A stretch of 64,000 nucleotides of DNA from Octopus sinensis (taxonomy: Eukaryota). Numbering within the stretch: position 1 is the stretch's first letter; every line of letters starts with the position of its first letter. The stretch lies in NCBI RefSeq assembly GCF_006345805.1, contig NC_043006.1, positions 100,316,001-100,380,000 on the forward strand, given 5' to 3'. Shown here in pieces: positions 1 to 8,550 of this stretch. The notes under the pieces are model-generated. The model had not been told where the DNA came from, did no database searches, and worked only from the letters and a program-made list of their open reading frames with translations. Position numbers and translations under genes: made by a program.

Positions 1-192
1 GCTGTGACATATTTTCTCTGTCCCATAATGATGAAAGGTAGAGTCAATGGGAGTTTAAAAATAATTAGATTTAATCCTCTTAATATAACTAACATTGTGC
101 GTGAAATCAAAGTTGCGAACATCATGGCAAATATACAAGCATGACACCCCTAATCACCCTCTTAGAACTGCTAATATTCTCGGAACGATAAA

Positions 193-405
193 GGTGGTGA
201 GCTGGCAGAATCGTTAGCACGCCGGGAAAATGCTTAGCAGCATTTTGTCTGTCTTTACGTTCTGAGTTCATATTCTTCAGAGGTCGACTTTACCTTTCAT
301 CATTTCGGGGTTGATAAAATAAGTACCACTTGAGCACTAGGGTCAATTAATCGAATAAAACCCTTCCCCAAAATTGCTGACCTTGTGTCACAATTTGAAA
401 CAAAT
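193..405 (+). mobile_element. tRNA-derived SINE with Nin/Deu-type core (family A, tail type 1)
   Basis: Head GGTGGTGAGCTGGCAGAATCGTTAGCAC, B-box-like GAGTTCATATTC, core GGTCGACTTTACCTTTCATCATTTCGGGGTTGATAAAATAAGTACC; homologous to copies at 2013, 43075 and 53300. Confidence 0.85.
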
Positions 406-1481
406 ATATTCAGAACGATACTTTCATTCTCAAAGATCGAAGTTTACCAAACACCAAAAGAAAAATACATAAAAATCAGTATTTTCTATCTACATAGAGC
501 AATTCATACATATAAATGTACGATCAAAACAAATGTGAGACCGAATGCCCAAGTAAAGGCAGGTCGCATGAGAAGTGCCTCAGCATGGATCCTTTCGTTA
601 CTCAGTATGGCTACGACGATTAGTAGTAACTGGTTCCAATACAGCAGTAGCACTGTGACCGTCTCTATCACATCCATTATTTATTACCACTTTCCCTGCC
701 TCAGTTCCCGTCTGACCAGACAGGAGCCGTTGATCTTGCATTTCGGAGAAGGGAAGTGTTCCTCCGAAACAGCTGGTCCATTTCCTATCATTACGCGCTG
801 AGCAGAGTAGGACCAGACATGTAACGTTGTTATAACTTTATCGCTACTTTGTTTGTTTTTGTTTACATTTTGGGTGTACTTAACATCAACCCTGCTTTTG
901 TAATATCCTTTTGTGCGACTCCTTGTGGCTAATAAATTATCATCTTCATTAATCTTGTAGTTGCTGTTGTTATTTGGAAATACACGGAAAACAAATCATA
1001 ATATTAAAAATATTACAAACAATAAAAAGAACAACAACAGACGTCAGAGTACTTATAATTACGAATAAATGACACAACCTAGACATTGATTTAATATCTT
1101 TGTCGTAAAAACAAAAAATAGATGACCTTTACAGCCTTTGAAAATAAGAAAGCTAAAACCGAGTTTTAGAAATATTATTTCTAAAATATATATATATATT
1201 TCATTATTACTGCAACTACCTATCTAAACAGTTTTTATTCTTTTATAAACTTCATGGTACAAATGATTATATAATACATACATATAGAAATAGAAATATA
1301 TACTTATATACATACATACATATATATAAATATATATATATATGTGTGTGTGTGTGTTGTGTGTGTGTATGTAATTATGTATGTATGTCTGTATGCATGT
1401 AAGTATGTATGTGTTAAGCCTTTCGTTATTCATATCATTGTGGAGATTGTATGATGTAGACTTATCATTGCTGTGTTTTCA

Positions 1482-1854
1482 GTCTCATTGATAGAGTATT
1501 ACAAAAAGTTGGCTATGAACTATATACAATGACTGTTAACCACTCAAAATTCTGTTCTTAGTTTTAAAAATAAAATGTTCATACGTAAAACGTATAAGTA
1601 AATTCTGAAATGTAAAAATATATTTCTGTACCCAATCATACATACACACATACACACACACGTGCACGCACAAAAACATTCACACACACACATACGTGGG
1701 TTTGTGCATTGTGATTTGGAAATGAAATAATTTTATAAATAAGATTTTATGAATTTTACGTATGTACATTTTATTTTAAAACTAAGAAAGGTTTAATTTA
1801 GAAACTAAGAATGCTGTGCATACCCAAGTTTTTGTAATATTTTATCAGTGAGAC
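1482..1854. mobile_element. Foldback/MITE-like element with long imperfect inverted arms and central (CA)n
   Basis: GTCTCATTGATAGAGTATTACAAAAAGTTGGCTATG is inverted at 1817-1854; TTCTTAGTTTTAAAAATAAAATGTTCATACGTAAAA is inverted at ~1754-1788. Confidence 0.7.
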
Positions 1855-2012
1855 ACACAAAAAAGCATAATTAAGAATACATCTTACAATTTGCATAAGT
1901 CAATACTTTCGATTTGGATGAAGAAAAGGTTTAACGTCTTGGCTTATCCCTAGACCGACTCGGAATAAGCATTCTTTTCATAAAAGACATTGAAATGACA
2001 AACAGGTAGGAG

Positions 2013-2243
2013 GGCGGCGAGCTGGCAGAGACGTTAGCACGCCGGGCGAAATGCGTAGTCGTATTTCGTCTGCCATTACGTTATGAGTTCAAATTCCGCC
2101 GAGGTCGACTTTGCCTTTCATCTTTTCGAGGTCGATAAATTAAGTACCAGTTACGCAGTGAGGTCGATATAATCGACTTAATCCCTTTGTCTGTCCTTGT
2201 TGGTCCCCTCTGTGTTTAGTCCCTTGTGGGTAGTAAAGAAATA
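2013..2243 (+). mobile_element. tRNA-derived Nin/Deu-core SINE (family A, tail type 2, LINE-like tail)
   Basis: GGCGGCGAGCTGGCAGAGACGTTAGCAC head, GAGTTCAAATTCC B box, GTCGATAAATTAAGTACCAG core, tail TGTCTGTCCTTGTTGGTCCCCTCTGTGTTTAGTCCCTTGTGGGTAGTAAAGAAATA. Confidence 0.9.
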
Positions 2244-2738
2244 TATTTCAGGTACGTGAAATCGCATGGCCACTCAGGATCATAAAGTTGTGAGTTCAAA
2301 TTCTGGACCGGCAGATGCGTTCTTCAATACAGCACTTCATTCTGTAATTCTCTAGTCAGCTGTAATTGCGCACCAGCCTAGTATTGGGGCAGCTTTCTCC
2401 TTCTCTAGCTGTCTCACTCTGGCTGTGTCTGTGAGCAAAGTTTGAGAGCCCGGAGAATTAGGGAGACCGATGCCTGCTTGAGACTGCTTACATGCCTAAA
2501 ACAATTAGCGAAAGCACTGTGTTTGTTACCAACCATACTAGCTCGAACAGGACGGTTAGATAATCTGTGTTCTACTGTACTGCGTTAAGGTCGTCTCCAC
2601 AGATTTTCTATAGCAATTTGTTATATCGCACGTTCGGATGGCGTTTCTTCTCAATAACGTACCTCTACTCAACTACCGAACTCTCACTTACGACGACTCG
2701 ACTCAAGAGAGCTCGACGTCTAGTCTACCGACGGCTCC

Positions 2739-4416
2739 TCTTTCCTTATTATAACCACAGAGAGGGTAAAAACAAGAACAGACAGGATACCACAGAGAGG
2801 ACAATACATATAACGAATATGAATGAAATGATTATATACCAATGAAATTATGAATGGCTGCATGCGCCCCCTATCAAATGCAGTACCATCAATATTGTTT
2901 ACAGTCCATTATTATCGGATATTTAAATAACAATTAAATAACATTTAACAATTAATTAACATGTAACATAACATTGCAAGTCGCTAATCCGTGTATCCTC
3001 CAGCGATCCACATCGGATTCCTGACGCATTGTCTTTCCAATAAGAAGTCATATTACTCGCTATCCATTGATTCAGTGCTATCTAAAAGACAGTCCTTTAT
3101 TAACGGTATCGCGTCATCCCAGTTGATAACTGGTTCCACCTTTTCAAACTTGACTTCAAACTGCACCATTCCCATGTCGCACCTTTTTTCAACTCCTCAT
3201 AGCTGTTCGGCTCTAATTGCTTTTGTTCCATCGTAGTCGAAACCCTTAGGTAATTTTACCCGTATTACTGATTTCATTTTCAGGATATCAATACCATATT
3301 TTCTTCGGCTGGTTTTCACCCCCTCCTTCATTCCTTTTTTCTTCACCTCACCTTTAGAGGAGAAACTTTCATACTTTCCTCTGCTATCTTTCTTGTCACT
3401 ATTTTTTCTCCGTTACATCCCATCGCCTCTTTTTTTTTCTTTTTCAGCTTCTCCGGTGGAGAACCCCTTCTACTTTTCCTGTTACAGCTCCTTCTCCACA
3501 TTCGACAACGTTTCCTCTCTCTGCGTCAAGCTCTCATCCCTCTTTTTTCCCTTGCTTTGAGGGCAGTCCGCTTTTTTGTGTCCTCTTTTGCTACACAAAA
3601 ACATTCCAAAGGCCTGCCCTCTACCACCACATTCAGCTTGTTTCCTTCGGGCAATATTATTCCTTCAATTATAGAATTCAGGTCTTCCAGGGTGGCTTGA
3701 ATTTTCATTTTAGCCCGTAACCCCAGAAGTCCAACTTTTGAGTTCTTGTTGCCTTTATTATTTTCGAACTCTGTTGCACGTGGAAGAAGACTACCGCCAT
3801 AATCCACGTCTCGTTTTATTCGGGTGGGATTTTACCCACCCTTACTCTCGCCATTCTTTTCCCGCAGTAACTCGGTAGGAAAGCCCACTCGCCATTCCTA
3901 ATCGCGTCTACTGCATGCTCTGCTGCTACTTCTTCAGATGCGAACCTGACTTCTACCACTCCGAACTTCTGACTTCTTGTTACAAAAGTCGTCAAGTTTT
4001 TTATATTTTTGAGCATTTTTTCTATACTCTCAGTCGCTGCGGTTTCGATTATTCCTGTGGACAATCTTAAAGTCTCATACAGGACCGTTCTTTTTTGTAA
4101 ACTTTCCGAAAATTCCTTTGGCGGTACCAGAGAGTGTTGTTCCTTGATTCTTTAACACTTTTCCACATTCTTTAATTCTGTCTGTTTCTACCTTTACATC
4201 CATCACTGTTAACGAGGCAGTATTTTCACTACTTGTTGCCACCGCTGTATAGCTCTGGCTCGAGTATTCAAATTCTCCATTATACAATTAAATCACAAAC
4301 AACAAATATATCCAGGCACACCCGTACAGGGAAAGCCTTCAACATTCAATAATAATTAATTCACAATCAATTAACATGTAACTTACAAAAATTAATCCAA
4401 CACTCTCTGACAACTC
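2739..4416 (-). mobile_element. Non-autonomous non-LTR retroelement carrying only a degraded ORF1 (gag-like, CCHC knuckle); L1/Tx1-like
   Basis: Consecutive minus ORFs 4075-4287, 3816-4064, 3526-3807; across a frameshift reads ECFxCSKRGHKKADCP (CX2CX4HX4C); no EN/RT between ORF1 and the 3' end; bounded by CTACCGACGGCTCC-type repeats. Confidence 0.7.
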
Positions 4417-4430
4417 TTACCGATGGCTCC

Positions 4431-4906
4431 TGTTTCTTTATTATAGCCACAAGGGCTCAACATAGAGGGGGACAAATAAGGAGAGACAAGACACCACAGA
4501 GGGGACAATACATAGAATGAATATGAATGAAATAGTTATATAACAATGGAATTATGAATGGCTGCATGTGCCCCTCATCACATGCAGAACCATTAATGTT
4601 GTTTACTGTCAATTATTATCGTATATTTAAATAACAATTAACTAACATGTAACATTCTTTAATTCTGTCTGTTTCTACCTTTACATCCGTCACTGTTTAA
4701 CGAGGAAATGTTGTTACTACCTGTTGCCGCCGCCGCAGAGCCGTGGCTCGAGGAATTTAAATTCTCTATTATACAATTGAATTAAAAACAACAGAAATAT
4801 ACAGGAACACCCACACAGGGAGAGCTTTCAGCAATCAGTAATAATAAATTAACAATCAATTAACATATAACTCACAAAAATTAACTCCACCTCTCTCTGA
4901 CGATTC
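4431..4906 (-). mobile_element. Second, internally deleted copy of the same retroelement family (3' end fused to 5' end)
   Basis: 4431-4655 aligns with 2739-2970 and 4655-4906 aligns with 4168-4416; bounded by the same 14-bp motif. Confidence 0.8.
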
Positions 4907-6526
4907 CTACCGACGGCTCCGGCTCGCTCTACTCGACGCTTCTACGACTAGCTATCACTAGCTATACGTATTGGACTAGCCTACCTATCGTCTGAGGGCG
5001 TCCACGCAACAGAATTATAACCAGCACTGATTTTGTAACGACGTTTCGCAAACGAAGCGTCAGATGTAAACAAACAATGATATCGAAGATGAAAAAATGG
5101 GTAATGGACGTATATACCATATTTCGAGAGTTTCTCCTGACGTCTAGGATACGAAACGTTATAACAAAATCAGTGCAGGATTTAATTTCTAAAGAAAATC
5201 TGTAGAGATGATCTTAACGCATGATTTAAGTGCACTGCTAACAAAGTAGTATTGACTTATAAAAAAACTTTTAATATTCTTTGTAGCATATTATGTTTGC
5301 TTAATGAAATATCCGGTACCTACAAATCATTACTATTGTACTGTGTTTCCGGAATAATTTATCCAGAGCTAATTATCTTAATGTAGATTAAGAAGTATTT
5401 GCTGCTACGTCTAAATTCTCGCAGACGTCTCCTCCTCTTCCTCAACACGTTTGCTTAAACATTGTCTCTCATATGATGTCCCTTGTACGAAACCTTTGTT
5501 CCGTCTATAAAATCAGGTTGGTTTTGTTTAATTTTATCATTACATGATAGTTTTCACGCGAGCCTTATAAGAGTGGTAATATTTAGAGTATGTTACGAGT
5601 CGTGTAACATGAGTAGGGGCAGCAATAATTACCAGTCTATACTGTGATGACGGAACGGAGGGAAGGAACTGCCATTGATGGCTAACTACATTAGGAAGAG
5701 ATTCATCAGAATACAGCGGGTTCATCCAGCCGAGATCTAATTCCAGTGCTTGCAATAACAATACATGATGATACTCATGGATATGGAGAGCCCTTTCAAC
5801 TGGATAAGGACAGTCCTTTCATCATGGATAAGGACAGCCCTTTCATCTTCTAATTTTCACTAACAAGGTCTGAGTTTACTTGTAACTATGCGCGAAGAAA
5901 CTTGCACCAAGTTCTTGCAGTGAGATCAAGCACAGAACACCCGAATCCCAAAACGCTTTCCCTAACCATCAGTAATATTCTTTCTTAATTGTTGATACAC
6001 TTCTGTATTATCTCAATGGCTCAATATGTAAAACCTCTCACACGACGACAAATTTCGCTGCACGCTGCTCGCAACAAGATTATATTTATAATCAGGTTGT
6101 TGACGTATGTGTGAGATGAACGAATGAATAATGAATCAGACGCTCAAAGGAAATCAGTCCACAGTTTCTGCATTCTTCTCCTTATAAAGATGCAAGAGCA
6201 ATGTGAGTATGCTTAGTATTAGACAAAACGATAGTGAACTTGATAGCTTATGCATGTTAAACCTCTTAGGCAAAGTGCACTCAAAGGCATCATAGAAATA
6301 ACTTTCGATTAACAAAATTAATCTCTTTCTTCAACACTCCGTCCAACAAATAATACCTGTTTGTTGAATTCACGTTACAATCATTAGGTAACTGCATTTG
6401 AATATTTGAATTTTCCATGAATTTACAAGCGTGAAATAAACACTATGTGAAATAACCTGGCCTTTTTTATGAATATTCCGCATTTTAGCACACAGATTTG
6501 AAGTGAATTGCGAGTTGGGCATAATA

Positions 6527-6667
6527 TAAGGTTGTCCCAAAAGTTCGTAGAAAGTCTTGGAAAATAATGGTCTTTATTTTGAGGAATAATTTTTGTTGTT
6601 TTTGTTAGTACTTAGCGAGTAAAAATTCAATTTTCGCAAGTGTTTACGAACTTTTGGGACAACCTAA
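6527..6667. mobile_element. Mariner-type MITE (~141 bp)
   Basis: Perfect 21-bp inverted repeat AGGTTGTCCCAAAAGTTCGTA / TACGAACTTTTGGGACAACCT; TA on the left flank. Confidence 0.85.
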
Positions 6668-7288
6668 TCATAGAGTTTGTGTTTATACAATTTTCGAGTG
6701 GGTACCTAATAACTGGAAATATACTAATATTTTGGTATTGTTCCATGATGCTGATATCCCAAGATGTGTGAGTTTGACTAAATCTATACAGACAAGGACT
6801 GCATATCTCTATAATGAAACAATGTTACCCACACATATCCAGATTGTATTTTATTTTGAGTATTGTCGATGTCAAAATGAATACCAAATCTGTTAGAGGT
6901 CTTTCAGTCACAAGTACATTCGAGTACATTATTCTGTATAACCATATTCATTAAAACAGACACGCACACACACACAAACACACAGGCACTCCCCGCCTCC
7001 ACATATATATACAAATATATGTATATAGAGAGAGAGGATATGTGGAGTTTCCGTCAGGATGGCTCAAGCTAATAAATTTGCCTTTTGAGTGCCCAAATAG
7101 GTGTGGAAACAAAATCCCGGATATAACAGTTGTGTGATTGTCTTGTTCAAAGACGGCTATGGGTGCTACACCTTTGAGTCAATAAGTATAGGTTGAAGTA
7201 GTGACGAAAACGTACAATTATGCAGTGTAGGACAAGGACATTTAATTACTACCTGTAACCTTATGTATCCACAAGTTTCACCAGTGTC

Positions 7289-8550
7289 TCAAGTGCCTAG
7301 AACCCTCATTATAATCCTTGCTGTACCGAAGAGACAAACATTCTGTTGGAGCCCTACCAGGCATTCTATTTCAATCTGCCTCAGCCATTTGTCTATATAT
7401 TGGTTTACTATTTCCAACGCCTCTCCGTATCTATAATCGTTATTATAGGCAATACCTTTTCTGTTCGCATGCTCCAAATTCTTCCTATTTCAAGTTTTAG
7501 GGGTTGTATTTTTTCTTCCTCTTTCTTTACAATCCTGGAATCAAACACGCATGAGTCGAAAAGTAAGCAACTTCGCCTCTCCGTATCTATAATCGTTATG
7601 TCTGTTCTATTATTTTCTAATTCCTTGTCCGTTTGAATTGAGAAGTTCCACAAAATCTGGCATTTCTCCGACGCTAGTATTTTTTCGACTCGATGATTGT
7701 ACCATAATCCAAATCTCTGACAGTTTCCAGTGTATAACTTTTAAAACCTGGTCCTGCTTCCATTTCTTATATTCTTATATTCTTCCTGTTCCAACTTGGC
7801 ATTGTATCACAATATGTGCCACTGTCTCGTTCCAAGTGTCACAAGCTCTTAATTTTTCTTGCACATTTTCTCCATATATATATATTTTCTCAAGCTGCTT
7901 GTTTTTATCGCTTCACCTCGGGCTGCTACAATTAGGCTCTGCTTCATTTTAACTGCCCCCATTTTTTAACCAAGCCTAGGATTTTGATCCACATACGTCT
8001 TCAGTGGCTATCTAGAATTGGCCATGCAGAGGTTTCTCTTCGATCTGTACTCCATTTCTATTTCCTTCTTATCATTTTCTCATATTGCGCGTTTCATCCC
8101 TTTTTCTTTCTTAACTGCCTTTAGTAGTTTTCCTGTGCTGTAAATACTATGTAAATACGCTACTAGATTTTTCTTTCCATCTGTACTTATTCTTCTACAG
8201 CTATTAAGCCTCTTCCACCCTGGTCTCTCCTCAAGCACAGACGGTTGATATCAGCTTTCGGATGGTGAACTCCATACATCTTCAAAAACTTCCTAGTTTT
8301 TCTGTCAGGTTTCTTTATTTCGTTTCTGGTCCAGTCTAAAATTCCAACTTCATATGTGATTAAGAGTACTGCTCTTGAATTTATTGCTTCAATAAGATTT
8401 TTGAAATTCAGTTTTGGCTGCAATAATTTACTCACTCTCCTTTATGCTCTCTACTGGTAATTTGTTTCATTTCTTCAGTTTTCTTATCTCATCGGCTTCC
8501 AGTATTCCCAAGTACTTAACCAATATCCTTTCTCAACTGCTCATCATCCC
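7289..8550 (-). mobile_element. R4/Dong-clade LINE, degraded 3' part (RT C-terminus, CCHC finger, restriction-like endonuclease)
   Basis: Peptides LDWTRNEIKKPDRKTRKFLKMYGVHHPKADINRLCLRRDQGGRGL; ETVAHIV; WNFSIQTDKELENNRTDITIID..LLFD; LQQNVCLFGTARIIMRVLG. Confidence 0.85.

Follow-up and report, generated by a model that had tools for sequence, protein, structure and literature searches.

A likely case of promoter-proximal homing by ORF1-only L1/Tx1-group retroelements in a Ty3/Gypsy LTR of Octopus sinensis

The window analysed here, a stretch of 64,000 nucleotides from Octopus sinensis (NC_043006.1, positions 100,316,001 to 100,380,000), contains an array of two related retroelement inserts. 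In the reading that we consider likely, both are non-LTR elements of the L1/Tx1 group that encode only open reading frame 1 (ORF1), and they are nested in a Ty3/Gypsy solo long terminal repeat (LTR) that itself lies within an older repeat. Their family, called family A here, would home to sites just downstream of LTR TATA boxes and is predicted to be transcribed from the host promoter.

Two ORF1-only inserts in a solo LTR

An earlier note on this DNA had described a 14-mer that brackets two retroelements and had placed the array in a TTAA-flanked miniature inverted-repeat transposable element (MITE). The three copies of the 14-mer are present on the minus strand at 2725-2738, 4417-4430 and 4907-4920; elsewhere in the window it is absent at ≤1 mismatch, with 0.00 occurrences expected and 0/100 shuffles yielding three. 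As the earlier note had supposed, the motif is a regenerated target-site duplication (TSD). Its downstream copy is 2725-2738 (sense sequence GGAGCCGTCGGTAG), the middle copy between the two units differs from the outer ones at 2 positions, and the upstream copy lies in the 5′ part of the LTR.

Window segment 2560-2738 was used to search the genome for the host of the motif (best 40 matches scored, 30 loci fetched; searches throughout scored the best 40 or 150 candidates, so that all samples are partial). The matches start at about 2619 rather than at 2581, and most continue directly into 4921-5011 with one motif copy. Since these empty copies carry one motif amid unrelated flanks, the host is an LTR family, and a MITE is refuted as the target. 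The host repeat is 218 bp long with TG…CA ends. In the window it lies on the minus strand, the strand of the inserts, as a 3′ part ending in a motif copy (2619-2738, putatively R/U5) and a 5′ part (4907-5011, putatively U3/R), flanked by a 5-bp TSD with 1 mismatch (CAATT at 2614-2618, GAATT at 5012-5016).

Among 28 full copies of this repeat, 16 are solo LTRs, and 14 of the 16 have a 5-bp TSD at ≤1 mismatch (8 exact). Flanks resembling a primer-binding site (PBS) adjoin 6/28 full copies and flanks resembling a polypurine tract (PPT) adjoin 6/28; locus L061 has both, and its paired LTRs have ATAAC on both outer sides. Internal ORFs linked to the LTR match zf-CCHC, protease and RVT_1 at L066, and Integrase_H2C2 or rve at L061 and L068; the Gypsy order of protease, reverse transcriptase (RT) and integrase is read from collinearity. 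The right half of the 5′ LTR of L066 was not found in the adjacent stretch. With TG…CA ends and a TSD, PBS and PPT flanks, and gag, protease and RT followed by integrase, the host of the motif is on sequence grounds a Ty3/Gypsy solo LTR. Other copies have a TATA box, 52 nt before the motif in an empty one, which in the window copy is destroyed by a 6-nt deletion and 2 changes. A known RNA gene was also considered as the target and rejected: Rfam gave only sub-threshold matches, simple repeats, in window 1-8000.

We assign the inserts to the L1/Tx1 group by their ORF1 homology, TSD and AATAAA-type tail, in agreement with the earlier note. Unit 1 (2739-4416, minus strand) is a decayed, ORF1-only, non-autonomous element of subfamily A1 with an AATAAAG-type tail, and unit 2 (4431-4906, minus strand) is a family-A copy with an internal deletion of ~1.2 kb. 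The two are diverged and head-to-tail with common ends (85-86% alike), as had been described. The different internal deletions attributed to them hold for unit 2, where an ACAT(T) microhomology (~4652-4655) marks the deletion joint, but not for unit 1, which has the normal length of the family: at least 10 other loci match it over at least ~1530 of its 1678 nt at 74-82% identity, and it departs from the normal 1.7-kb form by a loss of ~12 nt near its 3′ end. Splicing was rejected as the cause of the unit 2 deletion, the microhomology being visible and an AG acceptor not.

The broken ORF1 of unit 1 (3197-4151, minus strand, several frames) is similar to autonomous ORF1, with 25-41% identity in the frame 3816-4151; a zf-CCHC match in 3482-3664 is weak (E 0.037, below cut-off). 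Autonomous relatives carry Exo_endo_phos (the apurinic/apyrimidinic-type endonuclease, APE), RVT_1 (RT) and zf-RVT domains. Their best PDB match is LINE-1 ORF2p (E 4e-68), one autonomous ORF2 homologue is labelled 'Transposon TX1 149 kDa protein' (39% identity), and among named homologues the best for a related ORF2 comes from Argonauta. At first look the genome holds 24,040 zf-RVT candidates, with copies in the thousands. No ORF2 match was obtained in window 2501-5400 at E≤1, and the ORF2 matches at six other locus ids have coordinates that place them outside the ORF1-only elements. At least 10 near-full, collinear 1.7-kb copies, several with TSDs, lack ORF2 inside and indicate that the family transposed in the ORF1-only form. 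In a quick tree of ORF1 (84 segments, 104 columns), family A (10 rows, support 100) joins two short families without ORF2 (39/84 rows, SH-aLRT 87). By these characters family A is HAL1-like, that is, ORF1-only and moved in that form.

The two units are 85.1% alike at the 5′ end and 86.1% at the 3′ end, while 12/17 other 5′ ends resemble unit 1 more than unit 2 does, and each unit has relatives elsewhere that are up to 88-91% identical. A tree of 17 natural family-A copies divides into two subfamilies (support 99/100), and the AU test rejects monophyly of the six copies hosted by this LTR family (p 0.003). Because closer relatives lie elsewhere and the units do not group in the tree, we take the two units to be independent insertions at one site, as the earlier note had proposed.

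The ~460-bp element with 38-bp inverted termini that had been drawn around the array is real as an inverted repeat (2581-2618/5184-5221, 38 nt, 87% complementary, bracketing the array) but is not a single element, since two repeats are nested there. Its left arm is 2581-2618, and its remainder spans 5012-5337 with internal arms at 5013-5063/5137-5221; one other copy has ~230-nt arms. Similarity among copies runs ~100 nt past the supposed right terminus, to ~5310-5350 in other copies. TTAA is therefore internal to the arms, the right one of which is not terminal, and does not serve as a flank or TSD. None of 19 other outer-element loci matches the LTR halves or family A, and empty outer repeats, which were to be the empty host MITEs, read through the LTR insertion point without the motif. 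The outer repeat is thus a bystander unrelated to the LTR and the inserts, and the nesting order, oldest first, is outer repeat, LTR, two retroelement inserts. A possible 9-bp duplication with 1 mismatch (2572-2580 and 5333-5341) around the outer element would suggest a Mutator-like class; it was not evident in the 4 other outer-element loci printed.

Insertion sites in relation to the TATA box

The exact motif followed by the family tail occurs at 3 places genome-wide, in the window and at C9 and C14, and at C6 the 5′ junction is the same as in the window with a decayed motif. This LTR family hosts 6/8 A1 rows (the junction of C12 lost by deletion) and 6/17 family-A rows, the remainder being at other targets. 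A Tx1 family has been called target-specific when >20% of its flanks are of one type (Kojima's criterion, PMC4494074), and 5/17 loci of a listed but incomplete family-A sample lie in this LTR family, above that value.

We then surveyed the LTR itself with two half-queries, each of which favours breaks outside its own half and which together cover the repeat (80 matches listed, 60 loci fetched). The survey gave 53 LTR copies, ~3 of which are probably haplotype duplicates. Inserts of the clade are present in 9 (window included; 8/52 without it), another 38 are near-complete, and the remaining 6 are broken in other ways. All 9 inserts are sense-oriented and lie at positions 114-151, a 38-bp zone downstream of the TATA box; 7 were recognised by their tail and 2 by their 5′ end, and one is a SINE-tail fragment (SINE, short interspersed element). 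Three ORF1-only families recurrently use this zone. The preference for it is real but non-exclusive. The earlier claim of target specificity thus survives as a preference, with a Gypsy LTR in place of the TTAA MITE, and confinement of the family to one target does not: other LTRs, SINEs, the 5′ ends of relatives and unrelated sites are used as well.

In other hosts, hand-mapped family-A junctions lie 28-31 nt after a TATA box (5 sites), compared with 50 nt in this LTR. These hosts are mostly LTR-like by eye, with PPT-TG starts and CAACA ends; an automatic TSD check found none. A blind TSD scan of 258 loci gave 76 events. The TSD scans tallied tandem and SINE events separately and counted only tails with a TSD of ≥15 nt; 42 tails were removed on this ground in the scan of two sister families. 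Among full-length target classes, TATAWA starts at −33..−24 in 5/11 against a background of 2.8% (p 7e-6), and among short target classes, which include false TSD calls, in 7/31 against 4.5% (p 4e-4). Across the clade, TSDs often start 26-31 nt after TATAWA. With the bin fixed beforehand, held-out samples gave 1/6 new classes in 40 new autonomous loci (p 0.14) and 2/7 in 60 loci of two sister families (p 0.07), or 3/13 when pooled (p 0.02-0.05).

Several points weigh against homing downstream of the TATA box, the partial sampling among them. The bin −33..−24 was picked after inspection from 14, each held-out result is weak when taken singly, and one held-out class shares its host family with a discovery site; without it the pooled count is 2/12 (p 0.12). 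TATA is absent from the bin in 6/11 full-length and 24/31 short classes. The site in the window lies ~52 nt after the TATA position, not ~30, and its TATA is the destroyed one. The insert arrangement A+B common to C9 and C12 could also have come from composite copying. Finally, the autonomous partner with the same ends that the earlier note had called for was not found: no autonomous element shares the 3′ 200 nt of family A, the similarity being limited to matches of ~30 nt, and an exact 23-mer from the 3′ end of family A occurs at 7 loci, 0 of which have a match to the ORF2 C-terminus. Public contigs over a target unit containing TATA showed no joints or start clusters and give no evidence either way. 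We conclude that there is probably a positional bias relative to TATA, but a partial one whose replication is not yet firm.

Other targets of the clade include the U1 snRNA 5′ end, SINE heads, the 5′ ends of relatives and sites without any sign of a promoter. At L134:6653-6822 (G000:C15), a full U1 snRNA (Rfam, 125 bits) is directly joined at its 5′ end to the 3′ end of an autonomous L1/Tx1-group element; the 5′ junction of this element was not found at L134. One autonomous family occupies a fixed site in a ~350-bp tandem unit (L119:7004-7700, L128, L241-L246). This unit has a TATA-like stretch, a terminal T run and a core of hammerhead type, and it may resemble retrozymes; Rfam gave no match to it. 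For another family, the sites in a ~470-bp tandem unit (L235:900-1750, L236, L240, L259) lie 26-28 nt downstream of TATA; that unit contains a short exon-like stretch ending in GTAAGT, and no splice joint was seen in public contigs. A third has one exact target without TATA in an array (L118, L120, L127, L251-L253) in which part of the upstream flank matches the downstream flank in reverse complement.

An abundant SINE is present in the window at 2011-2246 and also at ~195-340. Its 3′ tail resembles that of the retroelement clade, and because the tails are alike the SINE was probably moved by the machinery of the clade. Two SINE-type copies elsewhere have TATA at −26 to −28. Long tandem arrays of autonomous elements with ~3.6-5.7 kb spacing occur in G000 at C3:72.50-72.53 Mb, C9:70.50-70.52 Mb and C9:76.60-76.62 Mb, and several of their elements have an open ORF2 of 1126-1140 aa, which suggests recent activity. 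Window 5775-5848 consists of three imperfect tandem copies of 24 nt.

Possible mechanism and alternatives

Non-autonomous elements can be mobilised by target-primed reverse transcription in trans, and copies can stack at a site because the TSD restores it. In the mechanism that we propose, APE and RT for target-primed reverse transcription would be supplied in trans by an autonomous Tx1-like partner that has an AATAAAG tail like that of family A, with nicking favoured in the open region around the transcription start. The TSD would then regenerate the site and allow the next copy to stack on the first. Family A would be copied from the host LTR promoter, and the 5′ end of A1 may be a captured LTR leader: in a second LTR, the ~35 nt that directly follow the insertion point align with four of the A1 5′ ends. 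The earlier note had taken a motif belonging to the terminus of the retroelement itself as an argument against a shared target, and this is partly the case: half of the motif (GTCGGTAG, sense) resembles the 5′ end of the element. Annealing of this GTCGGTAG homology at the 5′ junction could help to fix the junction, which would explain why the site in this LTR lies ~50 nt after TATA. Such annealing also fits the variable distance between the GTCGGTAG octamer and the 3′ junction.

More tentatively, and with odds that we put somewhat against it, the same behaviour could extend to a whole animal L1/Tx1 radiation, autonomous and ORF1-only. Such elements would target transcription starts by position, lack promoters of their own and capture host leaders that steer re-insertion, and their targets would be LTR promoters, the U1 snRNA 5′ end, SINE heads, tandem TATA units and their own 5′ ends.

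The main alternative to positional homing is sequence specificity of the Tx1 type, in which the partner endonuclease reads a short sequence near the LTR TATA (for A1, one like G..TCGGTAG). We consider this possible but rather unlikely. Sites of A1 in three LTR families all hold TCGGTA(G), the autonomous families of the L118, L119, L235 and L123 types reuse one exact site many times, and sequence preference of Tx1 elements is established (PMC4494074). However, the spacing from the 3′ junction to TCGGTAG is 7 nt here and 2 nt in the other two LTRs, three families insert at different positions (114-151) of one LTR, and unrelated targets have in common a TATA offset rather than a sequence.

Recurrence could instead reflect inheritance, the LTR element itself having multiplied one ancestral insertion that lay in an active Gypsy LTR; this would account for the restriction of LTR-hosted family-A copies to one subfamily and for the A+B arrangement at C9 and C12. 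We regard such composite spread as improbable, and for the window as largely refuted by the presence of two non-sister insertions at one site. The six LTR-hosted copies are not monophyletic by the AU test given above, the two LTRs of L066 carry different inserts at different positions around one internal region, and both LTRs of L061 are empty.

The Tx1L/Tx1D-like pair of the earlier note, parasitising a TTAA-flanked MITE, fits the membership of the inserts in the L1/Tx1 group and the position of the array within an inverted-repeat element whose arms contain TTAA, but we give it almost no weight: the motif is part of the LTR, TTAA lies inside the outer repeat, 0/19 other outer elements match the LTR halves or family A, and C9, C14 and C6 use the same site without a match to the outer element. 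A local tandem duplication of a single insertion with later deletion, which the note had named as its own counter-explanation, has the head-to-tail order and one 46-nt stretch 98% identical between the units in its favour, and is just as hard to credit, being refuted by the end comparison and the tree, in which the units are neither nearest relatives at either end nor grouped.

Relation to known elements and significance

Tx1 families are known in LTR retrotransposons, Mariner and Harbinger, and transcription from the target has been proposed for them (PMC4494074). Among the nearest to family A are the crocodilian Tx1-8_Crp and Tx1-4_AMi, which likewise target LTR retrotransposons and were placed by RT phylogeny (PMC4494074). 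Family A has no RT, and here insertion is concentrated downstream of the TATA box in several LTR families. Tx1-Mar/SINEU-2 and R2 are similar in having a non-autonomous partner that shares a transposon target, and in the transcription from the flanking target and 5′-extension capture proposed there (PMC4494074). The target of Tx1-Mar/SINEU-2 is one Mariner family, at about position 240 and in the opposite direction, whereas here LTR promoters are used in sense and the passenger encodes ORF1. HAL1 (half-L1, PMC5753468) is non-autonomous with ORF1p only, like family A, but it derives from mammalian L1, whereas here at least 3 families of a Tx1-like lineage show a target preference. Xenopus Tx1L/Tx1D belongs to the same broad group and stacks at one site through TSD regeneration. 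Its host is a TTAA DNA transposon (Tx1D is a non-autonomous piggyBac; PMC4494074), while here the inserts lie in an LTR with a 5-bp TSD rather than in a TTAA-flanked transposon, the preference is non-exclusive, and insertion is not at one fixed site.

L1-Tx1 families are listed in Octopus vulgaris in the accessible part of PMC13282606, where targets are not discussed. Our search of the open literature, with Repbase, Dfam and the supplement of PMC4494074 outside its scope, found no work on Tx1 targets in cephalopods or on TATA-proximal targeting by long interspersed elements (LINEs). The usual explanation for where APE-type LINEs insert is the sequence preference of their endonuclease (PMC4494074). 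LTR-targeting Tx1 elements are already known from crocodilians, and position-based promoter homing is possibly the new part.

Insertion that is position-specific relative to a transcription unit, rather than tied to a fixed sequence, is known from TRE5 and TRE3 of Dictyostelium and from Ty3 and Tf1 of yeast. The TREs and Ty3 insert at genes transcribed by RNA polymerase (Pol) III, and Tf1 belongs to the LTR elements. If homing fails, the array would still be a new example, from an invertebrate, of Tx1-like elements that target LTRs and have HAL1-like passengers; this would help annotation without being a surprise. If it holds, sites that have in common their distance to TATA and not their sequence would point to tethering or to recognition of the open complex. 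In the wider reading, the radiation would be the Pol II equivalent, among non-LTR elements, of the tethering of TRE and Ty3, as well as a hyperparasite that would truncate Gypsy transcripts. Sense inserts with a poly(A) signal just after the LTR start would silence the host retrotransposon, and old insertions would map past promoter activity.

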